From the NCBI GenBank assembly GCA_024683775.1, contig GCA_024683775.1_4106.1: DNA of 64,000 nt; one strand, written 5' to 3'. The DNA comes from a phage. The translations under genes were made by a program, and so were the position numbers. Under the pieces are notes generated by a model that worked only from the letters and a program-made list of their open reading frames with translations, ran no database searches and was not told where the DNA came from. Below, one piece after another: positions 28,853-64,000 of the stretch (position 1 is the first letter of the stretch; every line of letters starts with the position of its first letter).

Positions 28853-28870
28853 ACAAAATAAAGGTACACT

Positions 28871-29648: not shown

Positions 29649-29661
29649 CTCGGAGCTTAAT

Positions 29662-30137: not shown

Positions 30138-30150
30138 AATCGTTTAACCG

Positions 30151-30198
30151 GATAGCTTCTAGTCGGTACTGAATTCCTCCTTTTGTCTAGAAGCTATC
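30151..30198 (+). repeat. perfect 12-bp inverted repeat gatagcttctag / ctagaagctatc with a 24-nt loop
   Basis: read directly; intergenic, next to an ATTCAGTACTGAA palindrome at 30126-30138. Confidence 0.6.
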
Positions 30199-30342
30199 AC
30201 TCTTTTAAAGTATAATGATATCACCCTCATGGTTCATTATATTCGTTACCCTCTAACAGTATCTTTTTTATTCCTCTTTGATACTGTATTTTAGAAGTTG
30301 ACATTTTTACTTCTACTGTGTTATACTTAAGGCTGATTCATA

Positions 30343-30795: not shown

Positions 30796-30803
30796 ACATT
30801 TAA

Positions 30804-31208
30804 ATGTTGAAAATTCCACCACATACACTATCTATGCTAATTGAAAATGGTGTAATATTTTCTGAAGGGTGTAGTTCATTCTATACATGTGACGTAGACC
30901 CGTATACATTTGAATACCGTTCATTTAAAAATACATTGAGTGTTCCATGTGAAGCTTCTGACAACATTGTACTTGTCGTTTCGTTCTATGGTGTGCCAAA
31001 ATTCTTCATTGATATATATTATGATTCTTTTAAGATACAAACATACGATCATTTTCTTGGTGAAGTGCTCTTGCAAATGCAGATTGAACATGTTACTATA
31101 GATGAAGATATGTTCTTTCAGCTATCTACATTATACGATATGTGTGGATTGTCAGTTGACAACATAAATGGTATATTTGAAATTGCCAGAAACCTACGAG
31201 GAAGATGA
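30804..31208 (+). CDS. FQxS-signature family protein
   Basis: 134 aa; motif DEDMFFQLSTLYD. Confidence 0.6.
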   Translation: MLKIPPHTLSMLIENGVIFSEGCSSFYTCDVDPYTFEYRSFKNTLSVPCEASDNIVLVVSFYGVPKFFIDIYYDSFKIQTYDHFLGEVLLQMQIEHVTIDEDMFFQLSTLYDMCGLSVDNINGIFEIARNLRGR

Positions 31209-31209
31209 T

Positions 31210-31617
31210 ATGAATAAAATTTTAAGTGATAATGAGGTTGATATTGTCATTGATGTGCTTGAAAACAGTAATACATTTGAGAAGAAACACAGTACTGTAT
31301 ACTTCGGTAAAGATTGCTGGTTGAGCTATATATCTGATAATTCGTTTGTAATTCGTGTTGAAACGGGTGATATTGGATTTACGGTACATGCGGCACATAC
31401 CAAAACTGATAAACAAATCACTGTTATTGCTGACACGCCAAGTATCTGGGATAGAATTGATGATTGTGAACACTACACGTCAACATTCTATGATACAGAA
31501 GAAGAACATTTCATGGATAGTACGGTCAAAGAATTAACTATTCCATTTAAACTTATGAAAGCAGCAAGAGATTTTATTTTAAAATACAAAAAAATAGGAG
31601 TTGATGATGCAATTTAA
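31210..31617 (+). CDS. FQxS-signature family protein (FMDS variant)
   Basis: ORF frame 31168-31617; SD gaggaag before the ATG at 31210; motif EEEHFMDSTVKE. Confidence 0.55.
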   Translation: MNKILSDNEVDIVIDVLENSNTFEKKHSTVYFGKDCWLSYISDNSFVIRVETGDIGFTVHAAHTKTDKQITVIADTPSIWDRIDDCEHYTSTFYDTEEEHFMDSTVKELTIPFKLMKAARDFILKYKKIGVDDAI

Positions 31618-32053
31618 TGGTAAGGTTTCTAAAGTAGGTTTAGTTTTTGAAAATTGTGAGTTCATTGAGATTGATGTAAAGAATGTTTTATGGATGCATA
31701 TTGCTGACGAGAAAACTCTTTGTAGTCGTTTTTCCAACGGTCTAACTATTAGTACTGGTATTGGTGAGTTTGGTATCGCATTACGTAGTGACACACCATC
31801 TGATTTCATGGATAACTCAACACTGCTAGAACGTTTAAAAATGCGTGATGTTACACACGTTTATCTTTATGATACTAATGGTGTTGAACAGCGTTATGTA
31901 GTTGAATGGGCTAATTATAACCTTAGTGATCAATATTCAGTAAATCAGCGTGTTCAACTCACCCCTGGTGGTAATATTGTGTTTGTTAGTTCAACTGGTA
32001 AATTAATCAGTGTAGATGATGAAAGTATCGATCTATTCACTTCATATAACTAA
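31604..32053 (+). CDS. hypothetical protein
   Basis: SD aggag; ORF frame 31601-32053. Confidence 0.55.
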   Translation: MMQFNGKVSKVGLVFENCEFIEIDVKNVLWMHIADEKTLCSRFSNGLTISTGIGEFGIALRSDTPSDFMDNSTLLERLKMRDVTHVYLYDTNGVEQRYVVEWANYNLSDQYSVNQRVQLTPGGNIVFVSSTGKLISVDDESIDLFTSYN

Positions 32054-32064
32054 TACGAGCTTCT

Positions 32065-32484
32065 ATGAAAACAATCAAAACACATTTCAAAGACACGTGG
32101 ACAGAAGTAAGTACTGGTAATATTCAAGATATTTTATACAGTACTGAAACTATTCATGTCTATGACGAAGAGACAGCAGCGGAGCAGTTAAAGGTATTGC
32201 ATCGTAGTGTAGGTGAACACACCGAGTACGGTGTTAAACATACTCGTGAATTGGTAAGTACTGATCATATTGACACCTGTACTGTAAATCTATCAAAAGA
32301 AGAAATGTTTGATTTTATTCTAAACAATACTTTAGCAATTCAACCAGATGGATCACTATACAGTAAAACAGATGGTACACAAGTTCATAAAAAGTACAAT
32401 GTGACCATCAATGATACGGTGATGTCTGGATATGATTTAGTTGATGCAATCAACGAGTACGTTTCTATGCAGAGGTTGAAATGA
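32065..32484 (+). CDS. hypothetical protein
   Basis: 139 aa ORF. Confidence 0.55.
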   Translation: MKTIKTHFKDTWTEVSTGNIQDILYSTETIHVYDEETAAEQLKVLHRSVGEHTEYGVKHTRELVSTDHIDTCTVNLSKEEMFDFILNNTLAIQPDGSLYSKTDGTQVHKKYNVTINDTVMSGYDLVDAINEYVSMQRLK

Positions 32485-32846
32485 TTAATCTGATATATTT
32501 TACAATTATTTGTTGCATTACTATTGTACTTTGTCGTCTAATTCATGTATACTCATATCATAAAGCGTTGAGAATCGAACAAGAGATTTACAACGAAAAC
32601 CGTGAGCCAGAGCCAGAGAAGCTACCCCGCTCACCATATGCATTGAAGCGTGAGATGCATTCGGTGAGTAAGAAGTGGGGTTATGCAATAACCAAGCATG
32701 GTTATATCGACACTGCTGCAAATGGCTATTTTCAAATTCACTATGATCTTTCAGTTGCGATTGGAATTTTATGGGAAATGGAGGATATAGGTGGTTATGA
32801 GCGTACTAAATTTCCAAACTTACAAAATGATCCAGGAACTTCATGA
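32481..32846 (+). CDS. hypothetical protein with N-terminal TM
   Basis: 121 aa ORF. Confidence 0.5.
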   Translation: MINLIYFTIICCITIVLCRLIHVYSYHKALRIEQEIYNENREPEPEKLPRSPYALKREMHSVSKKWGYAITKHGYIDTAANGYFQIHYDLSVAIGILWEMEDIGGYERTKFPNLQNDPGTS

Positions 32847-33000
32847 AGAACATGATATAATTATAGATGTAGAAAAGAAGGAAGTTGTTATGAAGAAGCA
32901 AGCATATCGCATCTTAGACAACTTCTATCTTAAGGCATTTATAATGAAGTTCTGTGCAGACGAGCACTTAACAGGACGTGTTATACGCAAGGAGTCGTAG
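32827..33000 (+). CDS. hypothetical small protein
   Basis: ORF frame 32791-33000; internal ATG chosen. Confidence 0.35.
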   Translation: MIQELHEEHDIIIDVEKKEVVMKKQAYRILDNFYLKAFIMKFCADEHLTGRVIRKES

Positions 33001-33342
33001 ATGGACATGAGTTCAACAATTCAGTACTTGAGCGAGAATTTTGTCAAAATCATTTCACGTGGTGGTATGATTGTGCATCCTGAAACTGAAGATATGTATA
33101 TCATTCGTTTTGATGCAAATTCTTATGATCAAGTACTTGTTGTTTCGAAATTAGTAGGTTATAATGAAGTCGTTCAGTTCTGCTGTACTGAGTTCGGTAT
33201 CTATATTAAAGATGCAGAAACCAATGAGATTTCACATTATTTTTATCACACACTGATGGGTACTAAAGATTTTGGATTGAAATTCAATGATTTAGTACAA
33301 TGTCACTATATGTTTAAAACATACCCAGCATCTGGGAAATAA
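33001..33342 (+). CDS. hypothetical protein
   Basis: 113 aa ORF. Confidence 0.55.
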   Translation: MDMSSTIQYLSENFVKIISRGGMIVHPETEDMYIIRFDANSYDQVLVVSKLVGYNEVVQFCCTEFGIYIKDAETNEISHYFYHTLMGTKDFGLKFNDLVQCHYMFKTYPASGK

Positions 33343-33353
33343 GGAGTAACAAT

Positions 33354-34169
33354 ATGAGCAACATTTTCTTCAAAACCATTTCCTTCAAAAAAGAATCTTA
33401 CTCTTACGCTTATGTAGATGGTAAAGTACTCAATATCGTTCTAGATGGTGTTGATGTACCTGTTCAATTTACCAGTCATCAAGAAGCGATTGAGGGTGCT
33501 CAAGAGCTTAACAGCTTACTAAATGGTATTGAGAAGAAACCTGAAGTTAAATCTGACCTTGATTTATTGGTTGACAAAATTAAAAGTGGTGAACTATTAT
33601 CAATTCTAGACCAGTGTAATGAAAAATTACGTGGTGTTGTTGGTGATGTACGTACTACAGTTCAAGATCGTCTACTTGAGCAAGCATTCAAAGAAGTTAC
33701 TAAGAAAACTGAAGAACGTGTTGAAGGTATGATTAAAAACATTGATGACGTTCTCACTCATATGTTCACCAAGCCATACGAATCAAGTACTGATTCTGAA
33801 GAGAAACAAGAAGAACCAGTAGAACGCACCAAGCCATCTATTGTTACTAAAGTTAAACATAGTTTTGGTTCACTGGATGATGTATTTGGATTTACAAATG
33901 TACGTGTTAGTACTGATGAAAAGCCAGAAGTTGATGAAATGCTAATTGGTGACATGACAACTGGACAACTCAAAAAAGAGATTGATACCTTTGTTAATGA
34001 ACTAATTAGTTCTGAACGTGCTGAAAATATGTTTAGCAGTATTTCAGCAAACTTCGGCAAAGAAGCAACTGAGCAAGCAGTACAGGCATTCAAAGATTTG
34101 ATTTACACTGTTGCAATTGCTAATCCAGAACAAACACTGGAAGAAGTTCTACGTAAAAACTTCAAATAA
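33354..34169 (+). CDS. hypothetical acidic protein
   Basis: 271 aa; SD aaggag. Confidence 0.6.
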   Translation: MSNIFFKTISFKKESYSYAYVDGKVLNIVLDGVDVPVQFTSHQEAIEGAQELNSLLNGIEKKPEVKSDLDLLVDKIKSGELLSILDQCNEKLRGVVGDVRTTVQDRLLEQAFKEVTKKTEERVEGMIKNIDDVLTHMFTKPYESSTDSEEKQEEPVERTKPSIVTKVKHSFGSLDDVFGFTNVRVSTDEKPEVDEMLIGDMTTGQLKKEIDTFVNELISSERAENMFSSISANFGKEATEQAVQAFKDLIYTVAIANPEQTLEEVLRKNFK

Positions 34170-37250: not shown

Positions 37251-37709
37251 ATGGACGTATTAGCTACTCAATTCAAACGCAACGCAGAAGAACGTGAAGG
37301 TTACCTAAGTATCAGTGAAGTGGTTGAAGATGGATTCAAGCAGTACATTTTCAACAGTGCAATTAAACTGAAGCCAACAAAAGATTCACCGGATCGCAGC
37401 TTCACAAAGTGGATTGCATTCTGGGAAGAGTCACCAATTGCAATCGAAATGACTGTCATTACTACAGTACTGGAAACTGGTTACATCAAAGCAATTGTAG
37501 TTGATAAGAAAGTTCGCACTCTTGATGAAATCGGGACATACCCAGCACGTAACTCTAAAGTATTTGGGTGTTTAGTTGATGGTAAGTTTATGATTGAAAA
37601 AGATGCTAAGAACTATGTAATTGATAAACTACAAACCAGTGCTACTAAACAGGAAGTCGTAGACCAGAACGCAGTGGATGCTATTAAAAAGGCATGGGGA
37701 CTGAAATAA
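37251..37709 (+). CDS. hypothetical protein
   Basis: 152 aa ORF. Confidence 0.55.
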   Translation: MDVLATQFKRNAEEREGYLSISEVVEDGFKQYIFNSAIKLKPTKDSPDRSFTKWIAFWEESPIAIEMTVITTVLETGYIKAIVVDKKVRTLDEIGTYPARNSKVFGCLVDGKFMIEKDAKNYVIDKLQTSATKQEVVDQNAVDAIKKAWGLK

Positions 37710-38131
37710 TGTTCACACTTAGCAATGCAAAGTATCTATTTCTTATTGCTATTATTGGTTGGGTTATGGCTCCAGTGCTTAATGCACTGGGGTTTCCAGA
37801 CGGACATAAACTTGTAAATGTTTCAGGTGTAATCCAGGGCATTTCATGGTATTCATTGATTATATTTTCTATATGTATTCATACATTTGCACGTGATTAC
37901 CGCCGTCTGCTTTTTGTTAAAGTATTCGGTACTAAGAGATATAGTTTTGTGTTTACATTTATTTTAATACCATGTATTATCTATGCTTTTGTATTTGATT
38001 ACTATACTTATCTGTGGGTGTGTGGTTCTATGTTTGTTATGTTGGAATATACAAGAACTGTTCAAAACTCATATGCTGATGAGTATTATGATCTTGAAGT
38101 TAAACGAAAATTAACGGAGCTAAACAAATGA
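37709..38131 (+). CDS. hypothetical multi-pass membrane protein
   Basis: ORF frame 37694-38131; TAATG overlap. Confidence 0.5.
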   Translation: MFTLSNAKYLFLIAIIGWVMAPVLNALGFPDGHKLVNVSGVIQGISWYSLIIFSICIHTFARDYRRLLFVKVFGTKRYSFVFTFILIPCIIYAFVFDYYTYLWVCGSMFVMLEYTRTVQNSYADEYYDLEVKRKLTELNK

Positions 38132-38553
38132 GGGGATACAATAAGATTTGTATTTTTGTATTTTTAGTTTGTGCAATCAATACATTTGGATATTACTGTA
38201 CTGAAAACAACATTTCATATGGTTTAAATCCTTTGTGGTTTACAATTGCCAATGTAGCACAAATTGGTATTGCTGTTATGTCTGCACTTATGTTCTGTCC
38301 AATTGTCACTATGGATACTGAACATGAAAGGCTTGGATTTATCCGTGATACTGGAGACGAACCTTACAGTAGATTGATTGTGTTGTATCCATTTATTGTT
38401 ATTTTAGGTACTAACATCCAACTTGGGTCTTTATCTAATAGTGTTACTTCAGCAGCCATTACAGTCTTTGCATTCACATTTTTTATGGTACACAAATCAG
38501 TACTCAAATGGCACATCACCAAAATGGCAGAGAAAGGTACAGAAAACAGTTGA
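38128..38553 (+). CDS. hypothetical multi-pass membrane protein
   Basis: 141 aa ORF. Confidence 0.55.
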   Translation: MRGYNKICIFVFLVCAINTFGYYCTENNISYGLNPLWFTIANVAQIGIAVMSALMFCPIVTMDTEHERLGFIRDTGDEPYSRLIVLYPFIVILGTNIQLGSLSNSVTSAAITVFAFTFFMVHKSVLKWHITKMAEKGTENS

Positions 38554-46590: not shown

Positions 46591-47253
46591 ATGTTAGTTA
46601 ATCTTAATTTCATCACTTCTCCTGATTGGGCATTGCGTGGTGTTTCTTTGAACTTTAAAGAAACTAATTTCGACTACATTGGTGATTGTACTTTAGTTAA
46701 TGCTAAATTTGATCCTCATCATCCTTTTTGGGCTGAAATTCATGATCCTAATGTAAACAATAGTACATCTGTTATGACTATTGTACAGACGAAACATACA
46801 GGTATCCTCGCAGGTTACAGACCAGGACATGCGATTGAACACTTCACTGATTATGATGTAGTAGATGAGTATCCAATGATCCATGAAGATGGAAGTTTAT
46901 ACACGTCAGAAGACTTCCGTGCTATCTTTAATAGTACTGATGACATTCTACCAAGTGGTCGTCCACGTCCTGAGTCTTATCTTATGCACTCGTCTTATGG
47001 TGTAGCAGATACGCTTGAACAGATTTTGACGAAGTACAAGAACCTTATTGAAGGTCCAGAAGAAATTGTCATGTGCTATCATCCAGTACTGAAGTCTGAC
47101 CAACCAGAGAGTGGTGGGTGGCGTTGGCATAAGAATGGTGAGTACATCGGTACTAAGCGTAGTAAAGAACGCTTTGAGTACTTGTATGATGAGCCAGATG
47201 TTGAGGTTGTTTTATGTTATAATTTTCTTAAGGTGAAAAAGAAATGTATCTAG
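46591..47253 (+). CDS. hypothetical protein
   Basis: 220 aa; SD gagga. Confidence 0.6.
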   Translation: MLVNLNFITSPDWALRGVSLNFKETNFDYIGDCTLVNAKFDPHHPFWAEIHDPNVNNSTSVMTIVQTKHTGILAGYRPGHAIEHFTDYDVVDEYPMIHEDGSLYTSEDFRAIFNSTDDILPSGRPRPESYLMHSSYGVADTLEQILTKYKNLIEGPEEIVMCYHPVLKSDQPESGGWRWHKNGEYIGTKRSKERFEYLYDEPDVEVVLCYNFLKVKKKCI

Positions 47254-47486
47254 TATTGAGTTTTGTAGTTGCATTATTGTTTATGTTCTACCCTACACTA
47301 GTAGCAGTAGCCACTAAACGAAAGCTGGTGGATATCACTACTGTATTCTTGCTAAACGTGGCACTCGTTCTAGTGTCTATTATCATTCCCGTGAGCTTTA
47401 CGGTTATTGATATGGCATCTGTATTACTATTCGTCTTCAGTTATCTTATGCTTATTGAAGAAAAACCTGTTGACAAACGTTTGTAG
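47244..47486 (+). CDS. hypothetical small membrane protein
   Basis: 80 aa, two TM helices. Confidence 0.5.
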   Translation: MYLVLSFVVALLFMFYPTLVAVATKRKLVDITTVFLLNVALVLVSIIIPVSFTVIDMASVLLFVFSYLMLIEEKPVDKRL

Positions 47487-47497
47487 TACTGTATAAT
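47470..47497 (+). promoter_or_regulatory. class-B promoter TTGACA...gtagtactg-TATAAT
   Basis: TTGACA 47470-47475, TATAAT 47492-47497. Confidence 0.5.
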
Positions 47498-47544
47498 GGT
47501 TCTTGTAGTCTGAAACTTAACACTTAAACTTGAGGATATAAAAC

Positions 47545-47871
47545 ATGTTATCAGTTCTAATTTCAATTCCTGCTCTAATTCTGTTATGGGTTATGGTTTT
47601 CGAATTCTTCATTAAAGACGAAACCGAGCGTGATGAGTTTCGTGAGTTGTTTATGCTAGACTCACCTATTGCACGAATCTTCTTTGTTGTAGTACTTATT
47701 TCAGTACTGTCATGGTTAGTAAGTTTTGTATTACCAATTGGACCATTTGTTTCAATTATGAATTTAGTTGAGAACATTGTCGGTATTGTGTGGTTTATTA
47801 ATGCATTGTTTGCTGGTAAAGTTTCCATTTGGTTTGATATCTTGAAAGATAAACTAACTAGTAAGAAGTAA
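47545..47871 (+). CDS. hypothetical membrane protein
   Basis: 108 aa, three hydrophobic helices. Confidence 0.55.
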   Translation: MLSVLISIPALILLWVMVFEFFIKDETERDEFRELFMLDSPIARIFFVVVLISVLSWLVSFVLPIGPFVSIMNLVENIVGIVWFINALFAGKVSIWFDILKDKLTSKK

Positions 47872-48325: not shown

Positions 48326-48709
48326 ATGATCAACGATGTAATGCTTTATGTATTAATTACTCCGATTCTTATTAACTCAGTAATAACTATTTCAATGGCA
48401 TTATTTGGTATAGTAGCAATTGTTTATGCGGTTAGTACTGGAAAGTATACTTTAATTAGTAAGGTTGATTCATGGTTCGCATCTGATAGTGTACCATATT
48501 CAGCTAGTATGATTACGATTGGTATTCTAATCGTTGCATTTACACTGCACTGTATTGGTTTTATTAATACAAGTATTTTTTCAGTTTTTATTGGTCTATC
48601 ATTATATCCATCACTTTGGTACTTGATTTATGTAATCGATGTTTGGTATAATAACTACAAGCAGTACAAAGTGAAGAAATCCATTTTATCCAAAGGAAAC
48701 AAATCATGA
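48326..48709 (+). CDS. hypothetical multi-pass membrane protein
   Basis: 127 aa ORF. Confidence 0.55.
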   Translation: MINDVMLYVLITPILINSVITISMALFGIVAIVYAVSTGKYTLISKVDSWFASDSVPYSASMITIGILIVAFTLHCIGFINTSIFSVFIGLSLYPSLWYLIYVIDVWYNNYKQYKVKKSILSKGNKS

Positions 48710-51016: not shown

Positions 51017-51253
51017 ATGGAAACTATAATCATCATATGTGCGTTGTTTGCATTTTTGGTAATGTGGTCACCAACATTCATTGCATATAAAATGAAAAAT
51101 AAAAATGCAGAAGCAATTATGTACGTAAACTTATGTTGCATACTAACTTATGGAATACTTTTATTCTTTACTGAATTTACATTAATCCCAGTAGTAGTTT
51201 GTTCATCAATGTTTATTTGGTTGTTTCTGCTTTATGAATCTATTAAAAAATAA
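51017..51253 (+). CDS. hypothetical small membrane protein
   Basis: 78 aa ORF. Confidence 0.5.
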   Translation: METIIIICALFAFLVMWSPTFIAYKMKNKNAEAIMYVNLCCILTYGILLFFTEFTLIPVVVCSSMFIWLFLLYESIKK

Positions 51254-53041: not shown

Positions 53042-53299
53042 ATGGCTGAAACATTATCACTATATGCGTTAGTACTGTTATTTGTCGGATTTCTTCCCGC
53101 ACTCATTACAGCCATTCGTGTTGTTAAACATGAAGCTGCATTGATTGTATGTAGTATTGGGTCGAACATTCTATTGTATTTCTTTTTGACAAATACTATT
53201 GTACTGTTTGCTTTCTTTATCATGATTCTGTGGGTACTTGTAATTCTCGGATTCTTCATTTGGTCATTGGTTGATCCTAAGAAAAAACAGGAGAAGTGA
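53042..53299 (+). CDS. hypothetical membrane protein
   Basis: 85 aa ORF. Confidence 0.5.
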   Translation: MAETLSLYALVLLFVGFLPALITAIRVVKHEAALIVCSIGSNILLYFFLTNTIVLFAFFIMILWVLVILGFFIWSLVDPKKKQEK

Positions 53300-53619: not shown

Positions 53620-53649
53620 GGTTGACTTCGGTCAACCTTTATATATAAT
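53620..53649 (+). promoter_or_regulatory. terminator-promoter cassette copy 4
   Basis: hairpin ggTTGAC-ttcg-GTCAacc, TATAAT 53644-53649. Confidence 0.6.
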
Positions 53650-53662
53650 GGAAGAAATAAAC

Positions 53663-54190
53663 ATGGAACGTTGGAAATTAATTCCTGATTATGACTATTC
53701 AATTTCTGATCATGGAAGAGTAAGAAACGAACAAACTGGATATATAAGTTGTGGATTTAAAAATAAAGATGGGTATGTGAAGGTCGATTTGTATCGCAAT
53801 TCTGTGAAAAATAGAAAGGCGATTCATCGACTAGTAGCTGAAGCATTTTTACCACCACCCACACAGAAACAGTTACAGTGGGCAAGTAGAACAAAGAAAA
53901 AAGTTGTTCACATAAACCATAAAGATTGTAATAGAAGTAACAATCACTATTTGAATTTGGAATGGAACACAGCATCTGAAAACGTACTATATTCTTATTC
54001 ACATGGTAACGCAACAACTAATCGTGGTGCTGCTGTGTTGACATGGGAAATTGTAAGAGAAATAAGAAAAGATTATAATGATAATTATAATGATGTGATA
54101 GAATATGCACGAGAAAATTGTAATAAATACCGTGTATGTAAAAAAACAATACGTCGTATTTTATACAATCAAACATGGATAGAGGATTAA
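53663..54190 (+). CDS. HNH homing endonuclease (NUMOD4-like plus HNH_3)
   Basis: ORF frame 53648-54190, start moved past the promoter -10; WKLIPDYDYSISDHGRVRN...; INHKDCNRSNNHYLNLEW. Confidence 0.8.
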   Translation: MERWKLIPDYDYSISDHGRVRNEQTGYISCGFKNKDGYVKVDLYRNSVKNRKAIHRLVAEAFLPPPTQKQLQWASRTKKKVVHINHKDCNRSNNHYLNLEWNTASENVLYSYSHGNATTNRGAAVLTWEIVREIRKDYNDNYNDVIEYARENCNKYRVCKKTIRRILYNQTWIED

Positions 54191-55688: not shown

Positions 55689-55697
55689 ACATTTAAA

Positions 55698-55730
55698 AGG
55701 TTGACTTCGGTCAACCTTTTTTTGTAAATA
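55698..55730 (+). promoter_or_regulatory. terminator-promoter cassette copy 5 (weak -10)
   Basis: hairpin aggTTGAC-ttcg-GTCAacct plus T7 run. Confidence 0.55.
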
Positions 55731-55759: not shown

Positions 55760-56011
55760 ATGTTTAAATATGTTTTATTTTCACTTGTATTGTTTACTGA
55801 TATAGTTTATAGTACTGAATACCAGTGCTCTATTGCTAGACAGGAGTTTAGAAACGGTGAGTTCTATACCAAGTCTTACACTAGAGGATTGGTACATGAC
55901 AATAATAAAACTATAGGGTTCAATGCATTTGATAACAAAGATCGATATACGTCTGGAATACTATCTGAACGTAAGTCGGATGTAATAGGTATCGAGCATG
56001 AATTCCGGTGA
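55760..56011 (+). CDS. hypothetical secreted protein
   Basis: 83 aa, signal-like N-terminus. Confidence 0.5.
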   Translation: MFKYVLFSLVLFTDIVYSTEYQCSIARQEFRNGEFYTKSYTRGLVHDNNKTIGFNAFDNKDRYTSGILSERKSDVIGIEHEFR

Positions 56012-56372
56012 CACAGTTGCAATGTGTAATGATATTGAGAGTACTAAGAAAGTATATACTAATGGTGAAAATACCTTTAGATTCCACAATCTTACTACCA
56101 ATGAAAGTTTATACTTCTACAACTGTAAAGAGTTCATTAAACCTGTGGATAACTCATGTGATATGCCGGAGCCAAAAGCTGCTGTATGTGAGGAACCACA
56201 ATCCAAAGCTGACAAAGATTCAAAAGATAAGAAAGACAAAGCTGACAAATTGGATAAAAAAGAAAACAAAAAGAAAGCTAAAGATGATAAAGATAAAAAG
56301 TCCCCTAAGCCAAATCCATTTGAAAAGCCAAAGAATGAAAAGCCAAAACCAGACATGACATGTAAAATATAA
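55998..56372 (+). CDS. hypothetical protein with K/D-rich low-complexity C-terminus
   Basis: 124 aa; overlaps 55760-56011 by 14 nt in a different frame; alternative ORF 56008-56358 covers the same DNA. Confidence 0.4.
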   Translation: MNSGDTVAMCNDIESTKKVYTNGENTFRFHNLTTNESLYFYNCKEFIKPVDNSCDMPEPKAAVCEEPQSKADKDSKDKKDKADKLDKKENKKKAKDDKDKKSPKPNPFEKPKNEKPKPDMTCKI

Positions 56373-56379
56373 AAGAAAA

Positions 56380-56412
56380 GGGTTGACTTCGGTCGGCCCT
56401 TTTTGCTATAAT
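56380..56412 (+). promoter_or_regulatory. terminator-promoter cassette copy 6
   Basis: hairpin gggTTGAC-ttcg-GTCggccc, TTTTT, GCTATAAT (TATAAT 56407-56412). Confidence 0.6.
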
Positions 56413-56438
56413 CATTTCATCAACTACTGGAGGCAAAC

Positions 56439-56852
56439 ATGTTAAAAGTTATTTTCCGTTCTATCAGTTCATTACTTCTTATGATTAGTTCAGTTTCTTA
56501 TGCAAATGAAGTATCTGACTTGTTTGAGAAGAATTACCCAACTGCACAAGAGATGGGTGTTTTAAAATGCAAGCTAACTTCGTACAACATCATCGGCAGT
56601 AAACTTGTACTGGAACATGAACGTAGTACACCAATCCCTCTAGTAGAAGAAGGCAGTACCTTTAGCTTCAAGTACGGGGTGAACGTAACATCTGGTGTAA
56701 TGAACAATGTTGATGCAGAGACTGGTTCAACATGGAGTACTAGCGGTAAAGATGTGTTTCATCGTATGCGTGAAAATGGTAAACTGAAGTACGTATATGA
56801 AAGTTCATTCATGAAACGTGTATTCATTATAAAAAATTGTGTACCAGCATAA
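56439..56852 (+). CDS. hypothetical secreted protein
   Basis: 137 aa, signal-like N-terminus. Confidence 0.55.
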   Translation: MLKVIFRSISSLLLMISSVSYANEVSDLFEKNYPTAQEMGVLKCKLTSYNIIGSKLVLEHERSTPIPLVEEGSTFSFKYGVNVTSGVMNNVDAETGSTWSTSGKDVFHRMRENGKLKYVYESSFMKRVFIIKNCVPA

Positions 56853-57148: not shown

Positions 57149-57487
57149 ATGGAACATCATTTTGAATTAATTAATAAGGTATCATTTTATGTAGTATCGT
57201 TAATTTGGGTGTATTACATGTTTTGTTACATTATTGCATTCTTCCGATACACAACCTTGTATCAACGCATATACTACGATGCACCCATTTCATTTATGAT
57301 GTTCTGTGCATGTACGTGGGGGATAATTGAAGCACTGGTATGTGGATATAGTACTGACGAATTAAATCTCGTATCGGGGTTGACATTACTAACAATTGCC
57401 ATTATGATAGCTACTGTTCCGATATTTTTGCTCTTTAAACTGCTTCATCGTATTGATGAGTGGCGTAATAAAATCCCTGAAAAGTAA
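57149..57487 (+). CDS. small membrane protein, paralog family M (C-terminal R-x-K-I-P-E)
   Basis: 112 aa; three hydrophobic helices; tail ...RNKIPEK. Confidence 0.55.
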   Translation: MEHHFELINKVSFYVVSLIWVYYMFCYIIAFFRYTTLYQRIYYDAPISFMMFCACTWGIIEALVCGYSTDELNLVSGLTLLTIAIMIATVPIFLLFKLLHRIDEWRNKIPEK

Positions 57488-57490
57488 GGA

Positions 57491-57838
57491 TTGATAATGA
57501 TTTTTTACACTAATGCGTTTGCTTATGCCGTTGCATCAATCTACATTGTGTACTTCTTATTTGGTGGAGTACTGTACTTCTTTAAGTACAAAACATTGTT
57601 TAACCGAATGTATCCAAATCATCCAATTGTAGTAGTACTTTTGATTATTTCTGTTGCTCACATCATTGTAGAAACAATAATGGGTATCAGTGCAGTACAT
57701 TACAGTCTAGGTACTATTGTAATTATTACTATGATCATCGCATACATTTTAGTAATGGGTTTTGGTTTATTTGGAAATGTAGCAATGAAATTGTATAATC
57801 GAATCAAAACATTACGTGATAATCTACCGGAGCGTTGA
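57491..57838 (+). CDS. small membrane protein, paralog family M
   Basis: 115 aa; tail ...RDNLPER. Confidence 0.55.
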   Translation: MIMIFYTNAFAYAVASIYIVYFLFGGVLYFFKYKTLFNRMYPNHPIVVVLLIISVAHIIVETIMGISAVHYSLGTIVIITMIIAYILVMGFGLFGNVAMKLYNRIKTLRDNLPER

Positions 57839-57839
57839 G

Positions 57840-58184
57840 ATGTATAATTTAAATTTAATATCATATATCATAACAACACTGTTTACTTTCTATGCCTTTG
57901 TTGGTATACTCCTACTGTACTTTAAATTTTATAAACTTTTTGATCGTTTTTATCCGTCATTAGAACATGAATTCTTATTAGTGATGTACATATGTCTAAC
58001 GTTTATGTCTACATTTTTCACTGCATCTGATGGTATCATTGGTATTAAAGCTGAAGAACCAAATGGGAGTACGCTTGTTGCCTTTATTCTGGTAGGATTT
58101 TTCAGTACTTATATTACCTTTATTTCAGGATGTACCGTGATTGATTATCTTGTGAAATTACGAGATAAAATGCCAAATCGATAG
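57840..58184 (+). CDS. small membrane protein, paralog family M
   Basis: ORF frame 57816-58184; tail ...RDKMPNR. Confidence 0.5.
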   Translation: MYNLNLISYIITTLFTFYAFVGILLLYFKFYKLFDRFYPSLEHEFLLVMYICLTFMSTFFTASDGIIGIKAEEPNGSTLVAFILVGFFSTYITFISGCTVIDYLVKLRDKMPNR

Positions 58185-58193
58185 GGGATTGCT

Positions 58194-58451
58194 ATGTTTG
58201 CATTGCGTAATAAAAATACAAAAGAGATTCTGTGTATCTCAACAGTATGGGATTGTGCAGGAAGTGAAATGATTCTCGAAGAAGGTTCAGGTGATTGTGT
58301 TTATGTTGTTCAGGATCGTCGCGAACTGGAATCATTACTTGACGAATTTAATGCTGGTGGAAATCCTAAAAGTACTCAATTCCCTGAGATCAGGAATCCA
58401 GCACCACCAGGCTCTTATGAAATTCTACAACTGTGGGAGATGGATAAGTAA
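58194..58451 (+). CDS. hypothetical protein
   Basis: 85 aa ORF. Confidence 0.5.
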   Translation: MFALRNKNTKEILCISTVWDCAGSEMILEEGSGDCVYVVQDRRELESLLDEFNAGGNPKSTQFPEIRNPAPPGSYEILQLWEMDK

Positions 58452-58831
58452 TGCGTCAAATGCACAAAGTAACCGAGCTAAACAAGCGTCTGATTAAACA
58501 ATCAATGTTTGAGGATAAAGAGTCTTACTATAACTTCAAACGTGCTGTAGAGGCTGCTATCCACATTCAGAAGCTTAAAGATAGTGGATGTATTATTCTC
58601 GAAAATGGTTCTGACGTTGTTACTGATGACTTCAGTGTAGCGTTTGATGTTTCACCTGATGGTTCGCTATCAATGCCACGCTTAGGGACTGGTGACATGA
58701 CTGTGTGGGTAGGTTTCACTATGGGGAATGTACCAGGCACGGTGTATGTAGATGATGCTGAGTTGAAAGAAAGCTTCAAAAACTTATCGCATCTTGAACC
58801 ACAATACGCACATGAAATGAATTTATTTTGA
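58451..58831 (+). CDS. hypothetical protein
   Basis: 126 aa ORF. Confidence 0.55.
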   Translation: MRQMHKVTELNKRLIKQSMFEDKESYYNFKRAVEAAIHIQKLKDSGCIILENGSDVVTDDFSVAFDVSPDGSLSMPRLGTGDMTVWVGFTMGNVPGTVYVDDAELKESFKNLSHLEPQYAHEMNLF

Positions 58832-58833
58832 GT

Positions 58834-58860
58834 TGACAAACTCATTCAGTACTGTATAAT
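58834..58860 (+). promoter_or_regulatory. class-B promoter TTGACA...ttcagtactg-TATAAT
   Basis: TTGACA 58834-58839, TATAAT 58855-58860. Confidence 0.5.
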
Positions 58861-58907
58861 GTTTATCAAGGGGATGAACTTCTCATCCCCACAATCGAGG
58901 AATTGTC

Positions 58908-59462
58908 ATGATTACTTTTAAGAAAACTGCTAACCACATCCATGAGATCTACATTAACGGTCACAAAGCTGGCCTTCTTCGTTTACTCGCCCATCATCCG
59001 AATATTACCGTATCTGATAATGAACCTAAAGATTGGCGTGTATTTTTCTTTGGAAAGTACAGTGATTTTCAAGTATCAAACCTGAAGAACATTCGTTCAG
59101 TATGCACGTTAACTGAAATTAAAGAAAAGTTAACCAAAGCATTGAAAACTAATCCAGATAGTGTTCTTCCACCTGATAACTTTGTAGAGAAAGGATATGC
59201 CTTAGCTCATTTCAAAGATGGTACTATTCAATCTATCAGTACTGAATATGAATATCAATGGACTGAGTACTTCACTTATGGATCGCGTAATACATTGATG
59301 GCTTCACGTAGTAAATTGGAAGAAGTACTGACTCGTATGAATGAACGCGAGCGTCAATTTTATGACAAACCAGAAATGTGGAGTTCAACTTACATTGACC
59401 GTATTGACTATGTTATTATGACTCCAATCTTTGACACTGCTTACTATGATTCTTTGAAATAA
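58908..59462 (+). CDS. hypothetical protein
   Basis: 184 aa ORF. Confidence 0.55.
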   Translation: MITFKKTANHIHEIYINGHKAGLLRLLAHHPNITVSDNEPKDWRVFFFGKYSDFQVSNLKNIRSVCTLTEIKEKLTKALKTNPDSVLPPDNFVEKGYALAHFKDGTIQSISTEYEYQWTEYFTYGSRNTLMASRSKLEEVLTRMNERERQFYDKPEMWSSTYIDRIDYVIMTPIFDTAYYDSLK

Positions 59463-59473
59463 GGATAACTTAT

Positions 59474-59650
59474 ATGAAACTACGTACTCGTAATCGACTG
59501 ATGGATGCACTGTACCATGAACAGCTTTCACTGAATGAAGTGAAGCGTCAGTTAATGTACACATATCTGTTACCCGCTCGCATTGCAAAACAACGTGCTA
59601 AAGAATTGCTGAAAGAAGCAATCGAGTACTGGGAATCTGATTCGTACTAA
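59474..59650 (+). CDS. possible small protein (58 aa)
   Basis: SD aaggata; my translation MKLRTRNRLMDALYHEQLSLNEVKRQLMYTYLLPARIAKQRAKELLKEAIEYWESDSY. Confidence 0.45.
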   Translation: MKLRTRNRLMDALYHEQLSLNEVKRQLMYTYLLPARIAKQRAKELLKEAIEYWESDSY

Positions 59651-59678
59651 TTGTCACGTTAATTAAGTGAGGCGATAA

Positions 59679-59930
59679 ATGAAAATTTTATTAGTTCTAA
59701 TACTACTAATTGTTTTACCATTTACGTTAGTATCCCCTGAACTTGCATGGAATGTGTTTGTGTACTTACTATGTACTATTGTAGTAAATGGTATCTTGTT
59801 CTTAGTTCTATTCATAAATGGAATAGGACACGGTGGAGGATGGACCAGTACTGCTGATATTGTACATAAAACCACTATGTCTTTATTTGTAGTGTGGAAT
59901 TTATTCTGGACTTGGTTTGTGTTCTTCTAA
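59679..59930 (+). CDS. hypothetical membrane protein
   Basis: 83 aa ORF. Confidence 0.5.
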   Translation: MKILLVLILLIVLPFTLVSPELAWNVFVYLLCTIVVNGILFLVLFINGIGHGGGWTSTADIVHKTTMSLFVVWNLFWTWFVFF

Positions 59931-59939
59931 TTAAAAAAT

Positions 59940-60311
59940 ATGAATATAGATTTGAAAGGTGCAACCCGAACTGTCATACTCATTGGGGAATATGCTATCA
60001 AGATTCCAACCTTTAAAAGTTGGAAGCTATTCTTAACAGGGATGATAGCTAACCTCAATGAACGTTCTTGGATGCAGTACTCCAAGCGTAGTGATAGTGG
60101 TATCTGCCCTACGTTGTGGTCATCATGTACTGGACTAGTAACTGTACAGAAACGTTGTAAGCCAGTACAACATAGGGGTTTATTTTGGGTGGAGTTGTGT
60201 GCTTTAGCATTGGATTCAGAGTTGAGTACTGACTTCTTCTATTCAGATGCGAAGCCAGAAAACTTTGGGTATCTGGGTGGTAAGTTAGTTAAACTTGATT
60301 ATGGAGATTAA
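59940..60311 (+). CDS. hypothetical protein
   Basis: 123 aa ORF. Confidence 0.5.
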   Translation: MNIDLKGATRTVILIGEYAIKIPTFKSWKLFLTGMIANLNERSWMQYSKRSDSGICPTLWSSCTGLVTVQKRCKPVQHRGLFWVELCALALDSELSTDFFYSDAKPENFGYLGGKLVKLDYGD

Positions 60312-60312
60312 T

Positions 60313-60600
60313 ATGTACGCACTGTATAATAAAGAAAAGAAACAATTTGCTAAGGTTGAAAAATCGATTGATACATTTGGCATGTTTAAGTACTGTATTG
60401 TGACGGACCCATATGCTAACTTGTATTACGTTCTTGATGACGTATCAGTACTGCAACGATTGCTTGAACGTTCCAAAAGCCAATGCCAAGGTATCCATGA
60501 TGGTTCAACTTATGAAACACCTGAGTGTTCCTATGGCTATCTGGATGGGTATGAGATTGTGAAGTTGGGTGCATTGTTGAATAAATGGATTAAACAATGA
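60313..60600 (+). CDS. hypothetical protein
   Basis: ORF frame 60295-60600. Confidence 0.5.
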   Translation: MYALYNKEKKQFAKVEKSIDTFGMFKYCIVTDPYANLYYVLDDVSVLQRLLERSKSQCQGIHDGSTYETPECSYGYLDGYEIVKLGALLNKWIKQ

Positions 60601-61010
60601 AGAAGTGTATCACGTGTAATATTGAAAAAGACATTAGTGAATTTGGTATAAGAAGTGATACTGGGAAACATAGAAATACATGCAAAGGTTGTAGTAATAT
60701 TACCAGTAAGAGAACCAGAAATAAAAAAACTGATGTAAAAACACTTGAAGAAATCAAAAGAAAAAATAAAGATTTCATGACCAGAGTTAAATCATTTTAT
60801 GGTTGTAGTGTTTGTATGATGAAGTATCCAGAATGTTTAGACTTTCACCATCTTGACCCTAATACCAAAGAACATACACCAAGTTCTATGTTCAGTAAAA
60901 GTCGAGAATCTATCAAAGATGAAATTCGAAAGTGTATGATTCTTTGTTCTAATCACCATCGCATGGTACATTCTGGTAGACTATGTTTGATTGAAAGAAA
61001 AAAGGGTTGA
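60597..61010 (+). CDS. HNH endonuclease
   Basis: 137 aa; CITC...C..C...CSVCMM...FHHLDPNTK...CSNHHRMVH. Confidence 0.75.
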   Translation: MKKCITCNIEKDISEFGIRSDTGKHRNTCKGCSNITSKRTRNKKTDVKTLEEIKRKNKDFMTRVKSFYGCSVCMMKYPECLDFHHLDPNTKEHTPSSMFSKSRESIKDEIRKCMILCSNHHRMVHSGRLCLIERKKG

Positions 61011-61036
61011 CTTCGGTCAGCCCTTTTTGCTATAAT
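61004..61036 (+). promoter_or_regulatory. terminator-promoter cassette copy 7
   Basis: hairpin gggTTGAC-ttcg-GTCAgccc 61004-61023, TTTTT, TATAAT 61031-61036. Confidence 0.6.
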
Positions 61037-61064
61037 CATTTCATCGAAACGAGAGGATGAATAC

Positions 61065-61580
61065 ATGACACGCATTAACTTAGTACACGTTAAAGAACTT
61101 GCTGACCAACATCTGATGGCTGAATATCGTGAACTCCCACGTGTGTTTGGTGCTGTACAAAAACATGTTCAAGCACGTAAGCGAGTCCGTGATTTCAAAA
61201 TTAACAGTACTTACCTGTTAGGTTCAGGTCATGTAACATTCTTCTACAACAAGTTATTGTACTTACAGAAGCGTCATATTGATATTGTTAACGAATGTTT
61301 GCGTCGTGGGATGAAGATTCAAAACACTGAAGTAAACGACATTAGCGGATTCCCTACTGAGTTTTGTAATGACTACGTACCATCGGAGTCAGAGATTAAA
61401 ATGTCTCGTGAGCGTTTGATTGAGAAGCTACAGATGAAGCCTACGTGGTATAAGTTTACTGATGTTGAACGCCCACAGTACGTTAAAGATATGCAGGACG
61501 TAAGTAGTAATATAGAATCTAGTACTGATATGTTCGACGAAATTGAAGAACAAATCAAAGATGAAATGAATAATTATTAA
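61065..61580 (+). CDS. denV: pyrimidine-dimer DNA glycosylase/AP lyase (T4 endonuclease V family)
   Basis: 171 aa; N-terminus [31 protein letters not shown]... recalled as near-identical to the T4 EndoV N-terminus (active-site Thr2 and Glu23 context). Confidence 0.85.
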
Positions 61581-61586
61581 AGGTAA

Positions 61587-61619
61587 GGGTTGACTTCGGT
61601 CAGCCCTTTTTGCTATAAT
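61587..61619 (+). promoter_or_regulatory. terminator-promoter cassette copy 8
   Basis: hairpin gggTTGAC-ttcg-GTCAgccc 61587-61606, TTTTT, TATAAT 61614-61619. Confidence 0.6.
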
Positions 61620-61647
61620 TATTTCATCAACTGATGAGGATAACGAA

Positions 61648-62418
61648 ATGACCAGAGAAGCCCGTAGCATTCAAATCCAGAAAAACTTCAACTCCATGAT
61701 GGTTGCTCTTGAGTGTTTGCTCGATGATAGCAGTACTGTAAAAAGTATGGTTGTCAGCGGTGCACCTGGTGTTGGTAAGACTTACACCCTGTCACAACGC
61801 CTCCAGAAAGCTCATGACGCAGCAGAATGGAACGTAGCTACTATCAGTGGTAAGATGACTACTCTTGCTCTGTATGAAGTTCTGTACAAGAATCGTCACA
61901 GCACCAACGTATTAGTACTGGATGATATGGACAGCATCTTTGATTCAGAAGACGGTATGAACCTGCTCAAAGCAGTACTGGACAGCGGTAAACGTACTGT
62001 GTCTTACATGACTAGCTCTAAGTACTTAACTACCAACGGTATCCCTAACAGCTTTGATTTTAACGGTCGTATCGTATTCATTACTAACAAAGATTTGGCA
62101 CTGAATGCTAAAGCTAAAACCAAAATGTCTGCTCACTATGCTGCTCTTATGTCTCGCTCTGTGTATGTTGACTTACAGATCCAGACTAAAAGCGATATCA
62201 TGATTCACATTGAAAACGTAATGAACAAGACCAACATCCTGTCAACTAAAGGTGTTAATAGTAATGGTAGCAAAGCAATCCTGAATTGGATGCTGAAACA
62301 TGAAGATGCACTTCGTGCTCCTTCACTGCGTATGCCTCTGTTGATTTCAGCAGTATACAACAACAACCCGTATGATTGGGAAGAGCAGTGCGAAAACTTG
62401 TTCCTTGAGAAAATTTAA
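61648..62418 (+). CDS. P-loop NTPase (AAA-like ATPase)
   Basis: 256 aa; Walker A GAPGVGKT; Walker B-like VLVLDDMD. Confidence 0.6.
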   Translation: MTREARSIQIQKNFNSMMVALECLLDDSSTVKSMVVSGAPGVGKTYTLSQRLQKAHDAAEWNVATISGKMTTLALYEVLYKNRHSTNVLVLDDMDSIFDSEDGMNLLKAVLDSGKRTVSYMTSSKYLTTNGIPNSFDFNGRIVFITNKDLALNAKAKTKMSAHYAALMSRSVYVDLQIQTKSDIMIHIENVMNKTNILSTKGVNSNGSKAILNWMLKHEDALRAPSLRMPLLISAVYNNNPYDWEEQCENLFLEKI

Positions 62419-62485
62419 TTACATGTATTGACAGTACTACCATAGTGTAGTACTATAACTTAATATTCACCACCGGAGATACGAT

Positions 62486-62824
62486 ATGCTTGAGTTTTTT
62501 AATTCAGATACAATGCTTAGTATTACTTTGATTTATCTGTTTGGTTTTTTCTTTTATCATGCACTAGTTGTAGTACTATGGTATTTTAAAAAGAAAATCG
62601 TTTTCAAACTGTATCCTGATGGAAACATTTCACTACTTCTTTTCACTATTATCCAAGGTATGTTTGCAATTGTTGGTCTTATCGCACACTTAATTTATTG
62701 TGCTAATCCACAGTTGAACTCAATATCACAATATATTGTATTCCTTGGATTACTAATTTGGGTGCTGATATACTTGTTTAATCTCATCATTAATGGTAGA
62801 GCAAAAATTCGTGGGGACTTCTAA
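62486..62824 (+). CDS. small membrane protein, paralog family M
   Basis: 112 aa, three TM helices. Confidence 0.55.
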   Translation: MLEFFNSDTMLSITLIYLFGFFFYHALVVVLWYFKKKIVFKLYPDGNISLLLFTIIQGMFAIVGLIAHLIYCANPQLNSISQYIVFLGLLIWVLIYLFNLIINGRAKIRGDF

Positions 62825-63171
62825 TGTTTGAATCTTATCTTGAGTTTTTAAAGAGTAGTTCTGTTGCACATTCAATTGCAGGGATTATTCTAACAGGTTA
62901 TGTAACATTTTGGGTAGTTATGTTTCTAGGATGGTATTTTAAACGACAATTCTATAAGCGTAATGGTGAAGATTTTATGAATTCTTTCATTAATCAATCG
63001 TTGTTTGCATCAACATTGATAGCATGTATTGTAGCAACACTCACAGGAAAGGTACTGCCAGCATTCTCCGCAGTTTACGGTACATTGGGTATGATATGTG
63101 TAGTTTTTTACTTGACCATTAAACTTTGTTGTGTTATGATTGAACTTCGAAACAAGATACCGGAGGAATGA
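62824..63171 (+). CDS. small membrane protein, paralog family M
   Basis: 115 aa; tail ...LRNKIPEE. Confidence 0.55.
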   Translation: MFESYLEFLKSSSVAHSIAGIILTGYVTFWVVMFLGWYFKRQFYKRNGEDFMNSFINQSLFASTLIACIVATLTGKVLPAFSAVYGTLGMICVVFYLTIKLCCVMIELRNKIPEE

Positions 63172-63506
63172 TGGAATATTTTTTACACTTACTGCCGTGG
63201 TATATGAAAGTTAGTACTATGTACTATATTCTTAGTGCTGGATTCTACTTTCTGATGTGGTTCTTCAAACGACCAATTTCAGTATTCATCTCTGATAACA
63301 TGCTGCAATTAAAATTACACGCATGGTTTGGTATGGCGATGTTCATGCCTATTATTCACTACTCAATGATTAGTAGAGGGTTCCGTTCCAATGGTGAACC
63401 AATTATATTAGTATTCTATTGGGGTTCAACTATTGCATATGTAAGTTTGTTGTTGTTCCCAGTCGTTCATAAATTACGTGCTAAAGTTCCTGATGCGAGG
63501 TACTAA
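63168..63506 (+). CDS. small membrane protein, paralog family M
   Basis: 112 aa; tail ...LRAKVPDARY. Confidence 0.55.
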   Translation: MMEYFLHLLPWYMKVSTMYYILSAGFYFLMWFFKRPISVFISDNMLQLKLHAWFGMAMFMPIIHYSMISRGFRSNGEPIILVFYWGSTIAYVSLLLFPVVHKLRAKVPDARY

Positions 63507-63820
63507 TGGATATCGTAACATTGATTTACACGCTTTATTCATTCTATTTTATTATGTGTTGGGTTGGATTTTTATTTGTATTGAAGATGTTTGATTATGT
63601 TGAAAAACAGATAAAAGAATTTTGTATTCCTTTTATTGGGTCAACCATAATTAGTATTACTTGTTTGTATTATTTGGTATGTGATCCACCTGTTAATACA
63701 GCAATGATTGACTTCATGTTATTACCAACAACTGTTATTTTTTTATGTAGTCTGATGCCACCGATTAGTCGTGGGCTAACCGAATTTAGACGCAATCAAA
63801 AGCGTAAACGAGGGATGTGA
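63506..63820 (+). CDS. small membrane protein, paralog family M
   Basis: 104 aa, TM helices. Confidence 0.5.
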   Translation: MDIVTLIYTLYSFYFIMCWVGFLFVLKMFDYVEKQIKEFCIPFIGSTIISITCLYYLVCDPPVNTAMIDFMLLPTTVIFLCSLMPPISRGLTEFRRNQKRKRGM

Positions 63821-64000
63821 TGGAAATTGCACTTATTATATTAACTGCTATGTTGTTTATTAGTACAATTGTTATTATTGGCAAGTTCTTCTGTGTATCC
63901 TTCTTGGAAACCGTATACGATGAAATTGCTGATGACTATGAATTACATGCAGGATTTTTTACTACGTATTGGATTAGTTTATTACTACTTATCACTGTAT
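63820..64000 (+). CDS. small membrane protein, 3'-truncated by the window edge
   Basis: ATG 63820 overlapping the upstream stop; hydrophobic. Confidence 0.4.
   Translation, partial: MEIALIILTAMLFISTIVIIGKFFCVSFLETVYDEIADDYELHAGFFTTYWISLLLLITV

Follow-up and report, generated by a model that had tools for sequence, protein, structure and literature searches.

Bacteriophage T4 Imm is a small early protein of the inner membrane with its N-terminus outside; it binds the tape-measure protein and blocks genome translocation, like colicin immunity proteins. Imm (PF14373) and gp15 of phage HK97 are both small, helical inner-membrane proteins with a periplasmic N-terminus, produced early and encoded by accessory genes in variable regions; they act by binding to the membrane-inserting tape-measure domain of a phage entering the cell. 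Class I holins of the lambda S105 type consist of about 105 amino acids (aa) and possess three transmembrane (TM) helices, an N-out/C-in orientation and a basic cytoplasmic C-terminus. Colicin immunity proteins of the E1 type are small polytopic proteins of the inner membrane that neutralise a membrane-inserting domain through helix-helix recognition, and colicin-type immunity genes can accumulate in tandem. Here, we describe a family of small proteins with three predicted TM helices, encoded by two tandem rows of genes (arrays A and B) in a phage DNA stretch of 64,000 nucleotides (contig GCA_024683775.1_4106.1, GenBank assembly GCA_024683775.1), hereafter called the window. The window shares about 98-99% identity with the jumbo coliphages EC.P1 and fEgEco12, as compared to about 90% with 121Q/PBECO4, which assigns it to a jumbo coliphage of the Asteriusvirus type (121Q/RaK2-like). 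Jumbo phages of the RaK2/121Q kind are candidate therapeutic agents, yet most of their 550-plus genes have no assigned function.

Two arrays encoding one protein family

A first-pass annotation, made from the sequence alone, had proposed two tandem arrays of paralogous membrane proteins and named eight open reading frames (ORFs), all of which are present on the + strand, as is every gene between 54 and 64 kb of the window. Array A comprises A1 (57149..57487, 112 aa), A2 (57497..57838, 113 aa) and A3 (57840..58184, 114 aa). Array B begins with B1 (62486..62824, 112 aa), B2 (62824..63171, 115 aa), B3 (63171..63506, 111 aa) and B4 (63506..63820, 104 aa), followed by B5 (63820..64000), which is cut by the window end. 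The 60 residues of B5 encoded in the window are identical to the N-terminus of fEgEco12 protein g577 (122 aa). Array B runs beyond the window end; it consists of seven genes in fEgEco12 and EC.P1, where B6 and B7 come after B5, so that the total number of paralogues is ten. Shine-Dalgarno spacing and the annotation of fEgEco12 indicate that A2 likely starts at ATG 57497 and not at TTG 57491, and that B3 likely starts at ATG 63171 and not at 63168.

All ten genes belong to one family, and the proposed paralogy is genuine; we hold this conclusion with high confidence. Single-sequence phmmer searches were nearly blind between subgroups and between arrays, and the relationship became clear only after divergent syntenic orthologues from the Asteriusviruses A4, JNE01 and 121Q had been added prior to profile comparison. 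Smith-Waterman alignments scored against shuffled sequences gave z values of 15 (A1-A2) and 10 (A2-A3) within array A; the values for other pairs were 6.5 (B1-B2), 4.8 (A2-B1), 4.7 (A1-B2), 5.2 (B2-B5) and 6.0 (B5-B7). When a set of 476 ORFs was searched with jackhmmer, each of the seeds A2, B1, B2, g577, g578 and g579 retrieved every member of both arrays and nothing else; B3 retrieved most members and B4 only its own orthologues. Profile-profile comparison using hhalign linked array A to B1 (P = 1.2e-7) and to B2 (P = 5.9e-9), B2 to B3 (P = 3.3e-9) and B5 to B6 (P = 6e-5). The merged profile of array A and B1-B3 aligned with that of B5-B7 from end to end over 107 columns (P = 1.9e-8), and B4 aligned with all other members over 98 columns (P = 1.3e-5). 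Controls with reversed sequences (56+6), which preserve composition and hydrophobic blocks, all gave P ≥ 0.011. Furthermore, a family hidden Markov model (HMM), which scored A1 at 9.8e-23, matched only the eight array genes among the 31 window ORFs having at least two hydrophobic segments; the ORFs left unmatched include others of 80-127 aa with three such segments. Not one of 330 reversed or shuffled controls was matched. The reversed controls, the specificity of the HMM and the conserved positions described below refute the view that the proteins resemble each other in composition only.

Members are 104-123 aa long. Alignment of 30 sequences revealed one Phe residue (F32 of A1) that is invariant in 30/30; it belongs to the motif [WY][FY]F[KC], found where helix 1 ends. 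In addition, an Arg or His residue is conserved about 8-10 residues before the C-terminus. R-type proteins, comprising array A and B1-B3, carry LWFFK[RK] after helix 1 and the tail LRxKIPE; H-type proteins, comprising B4-B7, carry the tail HxxIKxKKRG, and B5 bears the motif GKFFCV. The first-pass annotation had described a shared basic tail, R-x-K-[IMV]-P-[ED], which proved to hold in part. It is strictly kept in A1 (WRNKIPEK), B2 (LRNKIPEE) and B3 (LRAKVPDARY; this protein also contains LMWFFKRP) and approximated by RDNLPE in A2 (tail LRDNLPER) and RDKMPN in A3 (tail LRDKMPNR). It does not describe B1, which has RAKIRGD (tail GRAKIRGDF), nor B4 and B5, which carry a different basic tail; B4 ends in FRRNQKRKRGM and is classified as H-type-related.

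The same annotation had postulated a common hydrophobic topology, and here our analysis agrees. Three hydrophobic segments were found by the Kyte-Doolittle method in nearly all members including A1, and Lys plus Arg residues are distributed alike: the N-terminus and loop 2 contain 0-1 each, loop 1 contains 2-5 and the C-terminus 3-7. According to the positive-inside rule, this distribution predicts with high confidence three TM helices, a periplasmic N-terminus and a cytoplasmic C-terminus. Hydropathy further suggests that the proteins reside in the inner membrane. An AlphaFold2 model of A1, built from a 21-sequence alignment with a predicted local distance difference test score (pLDDT) of 73.6, consists of helices 2-31, 45-64 and 74-106 and a short additional helix in loop 1. 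Sequence varies freely in helix 2, in the periplasmic loop and over most of helix 3, and the TM segments are the least conserved parts of the proteins. With the predicted N-out/C-in topology, the conserved residues would thus face the cytoplasm and the variable parts would lie in the membrane and the periplasm.

Database searches did not connect the family to anything described. No member matched Pfam at E ≤ 1, nine family members tested with PADLOC gave no match, a sequence search of the PDB found no informative relative, and Foldseek searches of BFVD and the PDB gave no significant match. By hmmscan, A1, A2 and B1-B4 match PHROGs 19285, 19454, 19046, 27396 and 33258 over the full profile with E values of 1e-46 to 1e-61 (A1, phrog_19285; B1, phrog_19454; B2, phrog_19046), and A3 matches weakly (1e-3). 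Together with 26405 and 27618, seven PHROGs cover the family, all labelled as of unknown function and showing only faint cross-hits; g578 has no PHROG match. Proteins kept there as seven unrelated families are hence joined here, along with one ORFan, into a single family. No mention of it was found in the literature searched on RaK2, CBB and fEgEco12, in comparative genomics of jumbo phages or in a 2026 review, and it had previously not been recognised as one unit.

Distribution, divergence and expression signals

The family HMM was used to search 1.84 billion representative proteins and matched 54 clusters at E ≤ 1e-3, all from end to end; their lengths are 89-129 aa apart from one fragment of 56 aa. 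Word-indexed searches returned 30 and 15 family proteins, and a search with B3 alone found just 121Q and RaK2 in IMG/VR. Every named match is a RaK2-like jumbo phage or an Escherichia coli record probably containing one. These matches indicate with high confidence that the family is confined to RaK2/121Q-like jumbo phages and ancient. In relatives, about 100 kb around the locus were scanned with the HMM.

Array B is preceded by a gene encoding a P-loop/AAA ATPase (61648..62418, + strand, 256 aa), a homologue of T4 NrdC.10. It matches phrog_1250 at 7e-103 over profile positions 77-326 of 327, is 37-39% (~38%) identical to NrdC.10 of T4-like phages over about 245 aa (tblastn) and contains Walker A and B motifs; PADLOC gave only P-loop-level matches. 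T4 NrdC.10 has an additional N-terminal domain of about 76-100 aa, which is absent from the jumbo-phage ATPase. The idea that the ATPase acts in T4 as a membrane-anchored partner is unsupported, since this domain is soluble in T4-like NrdC.10.

The ATPase gene lies 5' of array B in 121Q, A4, JNE01, K64-1, L009 and fENko-Kae01. Klebsiella phage K64-1 (Alcyoneusvirus) encodes an ATPase of equal length (gp383); two small ORFs come next and then eight family members (gp386-393), classified as B2, B2', B1, B3, B4, B5, B7 and one divergent member. B1-B5 and B7 thus have 1:1 orthologues in another genus (that of B1 being gp388), which shows that the array is ancient and not a recent expansion; B3 is the paralogue best conserved between the genera, with 38% identity to gp389. 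On L009, a distant metagenomic contig, the gene for an ATPase homologue (5e-107) precedes at least ten members, those of the R-type coming first and those of the H-type after them. Klebsiella phage fENko-Kae01 possesses an ATPase homologue (5e-99) and then a reduced set of members, with one R-type gene standing apart. The spacing between ATPase and array is 5 nucleotides (nt) in L009 and 5-10 nt over both of these genomes. The recurrence across lineages indicates an ancient module composed of a NrdC.10-like ATPase, an R-type block and an H-type block. Array A was seen only in Asteriusviruses, in 1 to 3 copies, and is closest to B1 and B2; with high confidence, it appears to be a secondary, Asteriusvirus-specific expansion of the R-type. 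Copy number in array B ranges from about 4 to about 12. The observation of the first-pass annotation that the arrays bracket denV and the ATPase gene is correct in that both are flanked. The ATPase, however, is the constant 5' neighbour of array B in all lineages examined, and denV and about nine other bracketed genes are incidental to the arrays. With two diagnostic motifs and a conserved, exchangeable ATPase-plus-array module defined, about ten anonymous genes per genome become one testable unit.

Comparison with 121Q gave dN/dS ratios (nonsynonymous over synonymous substitution rates) of 0.16-0.40 for family members, indicating functional genes under purifying selection. The 121Q orthologue of B4 (gp228/gp229, L006 10185-10500) is interrupted by a +1 frameshift within a stretch of seven T residues and may represent either a pseudogene or a homopolymer sequencing error. 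Divergence is nevertheless distributed very unevenly along the locus. The segments 58833-60339, 61000-61468 and 61585-62420 are 92-96% identical to A4 at the nucleotide level, whereas array A has no nucleotide match, array B shows a single stretch of 71% identity, and the proteins are 27-65% identical. The ATPase is 96% identical between the two phages, as compared to 33-65% for array proteins. Divergence from JNE01 follows a similar pattern. Even in the comparison with fEgEco12, whose overall identity to the window is 98%, A3 stands out as the most divergent member, with a synonymous divergence (pS) of 0.245 as compared to 0.02-0.06 in neighbouring genes and a ratio of nonsynonymous to synonymous divergence (pN/pS) of 0.22. 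Synonymous sites are as divergent as nonsynonymous ones, which points to recombinational replacement by old alleles. The arrays are, as read from these comparisons, exchanged as divergent cassettes between otherwise near-identical phages. They had previously been called diversifying; this is apt for their very high divergence between phages, which arises by cassette replacement, and not for the selection regime.

The boundaries of the blocks shared with A4 and JNE01 (58833, 61000, 61585 and 62420) coincide with repeated hairpin and promoter elements. These elements are similar to PeSL cassettes, by which modules are shuffled in T4-type phages (PMC2839356, PMC4122927). Perfect TTGACW-N16-18-TATAAT sites number 20 in the window, as compared to 0.3 expected, and every one lies on the + strand. 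One of them, a consensus sigma-70 promoter with an overlapping PeSL-like hairpin at 56383..56412 (+ strand; TTGACT-18-TATAAT with TG), probably drives the genes from 56439 through array A. A PeSL-like terminator/promoter at 61590..61619 (+ strand), composed of a hairpin at 61585-61608 and TTGACT-18-TATAAT, precedes the ATPase gene, and a weaker sigma-70-like promoter (62428..62456, + strand; TTGACA-17-TACTAT) is located in the 67-nt gap before B1. The consensus sigma-70 sites suggest early-type transcription of the arrays by host RNA polymerase; array B would be expressed together with or just after the NrdC.10-like ATPase.

Within array B, B1-B5 are linked by one-nucleotide TAATG or TGATG overlaps, the start of B2 overlapping the stop of B1 by 1 nt. 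The Shine-Dalgarno sequence of each downstream gene lies within the last codons of the upstream gene (B1-B4), and the last codons of A2 likewise contain such a sequence. Overlaps and embedded Shine-Dalgarno sequences imply translational coupling. As the Shine-Dalgarno sequence is located inside tail codons, part of the conservation of the tail may reflect a constraint at the nucleotide level. We rejected this as a full explanation of the "P-E" tail because the motif persists in A1, where the Shine-Dalgarno sequence follows the stop codon, and in the stand-alone fENko gene ENKO_495, whose neighbours have no family match; hence, the nucleotide constraint can explain the tail only partially.

Possible functions of the arrays

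T4 Imm may be regarded as the closest functional analogue of the family, albeit without homology: no member matched PF14373 (Pfam, E ≤ 1), and Imm was absent among the BFVD matches found by Foldseek. As with Imm and HK97 gp15, the proteins are small and helical and the genes are accessory ones in a variable region; an inner-membrane location, a periplasmic N-terminus and early synthesis are predicted. Imm differs in being encoded by a single gene for 83 aa and in its number of helices, whereas ten paralogues with two tail subtypes and an ATPase neighbour were found here. The family may also be compared with colicin immunity proteins of the E1 type, which are likewise small and polytopic. The analogy would lie in neutralising a membrane-inserting domain by helix-helix contacts; no homology was detected, the family is phage-encoded, and there is no cognate toxin gene nearby.

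The first-pass annotation had suggested superinfection exclusion, lysis timing or counter-defence as roles of such arrays. We tentatively propose that the family constitutes an early battery of Imm-like immunity or superinfection-exclusion proteins. The paralogues would be located in the cytoplasmic membrane of the infected cell, where the variable membrane or periplasmic face of each could bind and neutralise a different membrane-inserting component of an invader; candidate targets are pore-forming toxins and, in incoming phages, the tape-measure or pore-forming domains. The cytoplasmic motifs, being shared by the paralogues, might serve a single step, namely insertion, stability or being handled by one and the same partner, perhaps the ATPase encoded next to them. 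In favour of exclusion we count that the region behaves as a conflict locus, with flanks conserved relative to A4, divergent arrays and variable copy number. If exclusion or immunity is indeed their function, the arrays would form the largest known battery of such proteins; this would matter for the design of phage cocktails, since exclusion between related jumbo phages may depend on the alleles that they carry.

Several points weigh against this proposal. Neither in sequence nor in fold did the family resemble any characterised protein, Imm, Sie proteins and colicin immunity proteins included, and no positive selection was detected, pN/pS being below 0.5 everywhere. To our knowledge, exclusion systems comprise one or two genes, not ten. 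Early timing and membrane location are predictions from consensus motifs and hydropathy only, and any exclusion activity is hypothetical. That Escherichia and Klebsiella phages share 1:1 orthologues of B1-B5 and B7, with R-type genes placed before H-type genes in a fixed order, resembles the retention of non-redundant subunits more than an expansion driven by an arms race, and the tight coupling and constant adjacency of the ATPase gene fit a stoichiometric complex at least as well. The main rival explanation, which we consider possible if somewhat doubtful, is a hetero-oligomeric complex of the inner membrane. Its non-redundant subunits would be produced early and in stoichiometric proportions; through the cytoplasmic motifs, they would dock to the NrdC.10-like ATPase or be driven by it. 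It might act as a membrane anchor, scaffold, transporter or remodelling device during jumbo-phage infection. The ATPase gene adjoining the array in all lineages examined, at a distance of a few nucleotides in L009 and fENko-Kae01, the one-nucleotide overlaps, the orthologous positions kept in the same order across genera and the cytoplasmic orientation of the conserved residues are all consistent with such a complex. On the other hand, the ATPase family occurs in more than 1,300 T4-like phage records or genomes without an adjoining three-TM array, cassettes are exchanged independently of the near-identical ATPase of A4, and array size varies from ~4 to ~12 genes; conservation is lowest in the TM segments, through which the subunits would contact each other, and the B4 frameshift of 121Q, if real, would identify a dispensable member. 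A more specific version, which we judge unlikely, holds that the ATPase and 7-12 co-translated R- and H-type paralogues form a dedicated multi-subunit machine of the inner membrane unique to RaK2-like jumbo phages, acting early, for example as a membrane platform or gate; the tails would be docking sites for the ATPase, and the hypervariable membrane parts would be tuned to hosts or competitors. Should the proteins form a complex with the ATPase, the widespread T4 NrdC.10 family would gain its first functional lead.

We also regard as improbable a role in counter-defence, or in taking over the host, at the level of the membrane. Here, the proteins would inhibit membrane proteases or those abortive-infection effectors of the host that act on membranes, or they would perturb functions of the host membrane, with paralogues tuned to different host targets. 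Early-type promoters, a hypervariable accessory region with cassette exchange and the restriction of the family to phages of Enterobacterales would agree with this role; it is opposed by the lack of similarity to a known anti-defence protein or PADLOC model and by orthologues being conserved across phages of different host genera. A role in lysis timing, with the arrays supplying holins, antiholins or regulators for an endolysin of the signal-arrest-release (SAR) type, appears very unlikely. The family matches class I holins in having three TM segments, a predicted N-out/C-in topology and a charged, basic C-terminus. Moreover, RaK2-like phages are not known to possess a holin defined by experiment (PMC3622015), and an endolysin with an N-terminal TM domain has been described (PMC5259590). 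The genes differ from those of holins, however, in their consensus sigma-70 promoters of the early and not the late type, the lack of an adjacent endolysin gene and their number, ten paralogues being unprecedented for holins. No Pfam or PHROG holin family was matched, and the Foldseek match to a holin had E = 2. In fEgEco12, the arrays are located at 322-330 kb, separated by more than 75 kb from both the lysozyme (118 kb) and a weak T-holin-like candidate (247 kb). Among these readings, the proposal of an Imm-like exclusion battery is the one we favour, with the reservations given.

Neighbouring genes and repeated elements

The gene denV, located between the arrays, was identified by a Pyr_excise match and is preceded by a composite hairpin-plus-promoter element at 61007. 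Elements of this kind, each about 30-50 nt long, recur at 49249, 52843, 53622, 56383, 61007 and 61590, and also at 55695-55720. They consist of a GC-rich hairpin, AAGGGTTGACTTCGGTCAGCCCTT, with the -35 box within the stem, followed by TATAAT, and would combine a terminator with an early promoter. A second promoter class carries the extended motif CAGTACTGTATAAT after TTGAC[AT] and was found at 22343, 22764, 43508, 47470 and 58833.

Two genes for small soluble proteins, 58194-58451 (85 aa, starting with MFALRNK) and 60313-60600 (95 aa, starting with MYALYNK), are paralogues of each other and both belong to phrog_8563. An HNH-type homing endonuclease gene with HNH_3 and NUMOD4 domains is located at 53648-54190. 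The gene at 60597-61010 is annotated as HNH in fEgEco12 and has no counterpart at this site in 121Q, A4 or JNE01; both HNH genes are probably mobile insertions.

Just upstream of array A, the region 55760-56852 encodes three small proteins with N-terminal signal-like hydrophobic segments, the first of which is labelled "lytic conversion lipoprotein" in fEgEco12, a label for which no Pfam support was found. Additional small ORFs with 3-4 hydrophobic segments and no match to the family HMM are located at 37694-38553, 47244-47871, 48326-48709, 51017-51253, 53042-53299 and 59679-59930; apparently, small membrane proteins are generally abundant in the early region. Just past the 3' end of the window, array B is abutted by a convergent block of at least a dozen paralogous genes for proteins of about 370-450 aa, annotated as RCC1-like "chromosome condensation regulator", which extends over positions 17961-26999 of the fEgEco12 locus (L001) and 16897-33490 of the EC.P1 locus (L014).

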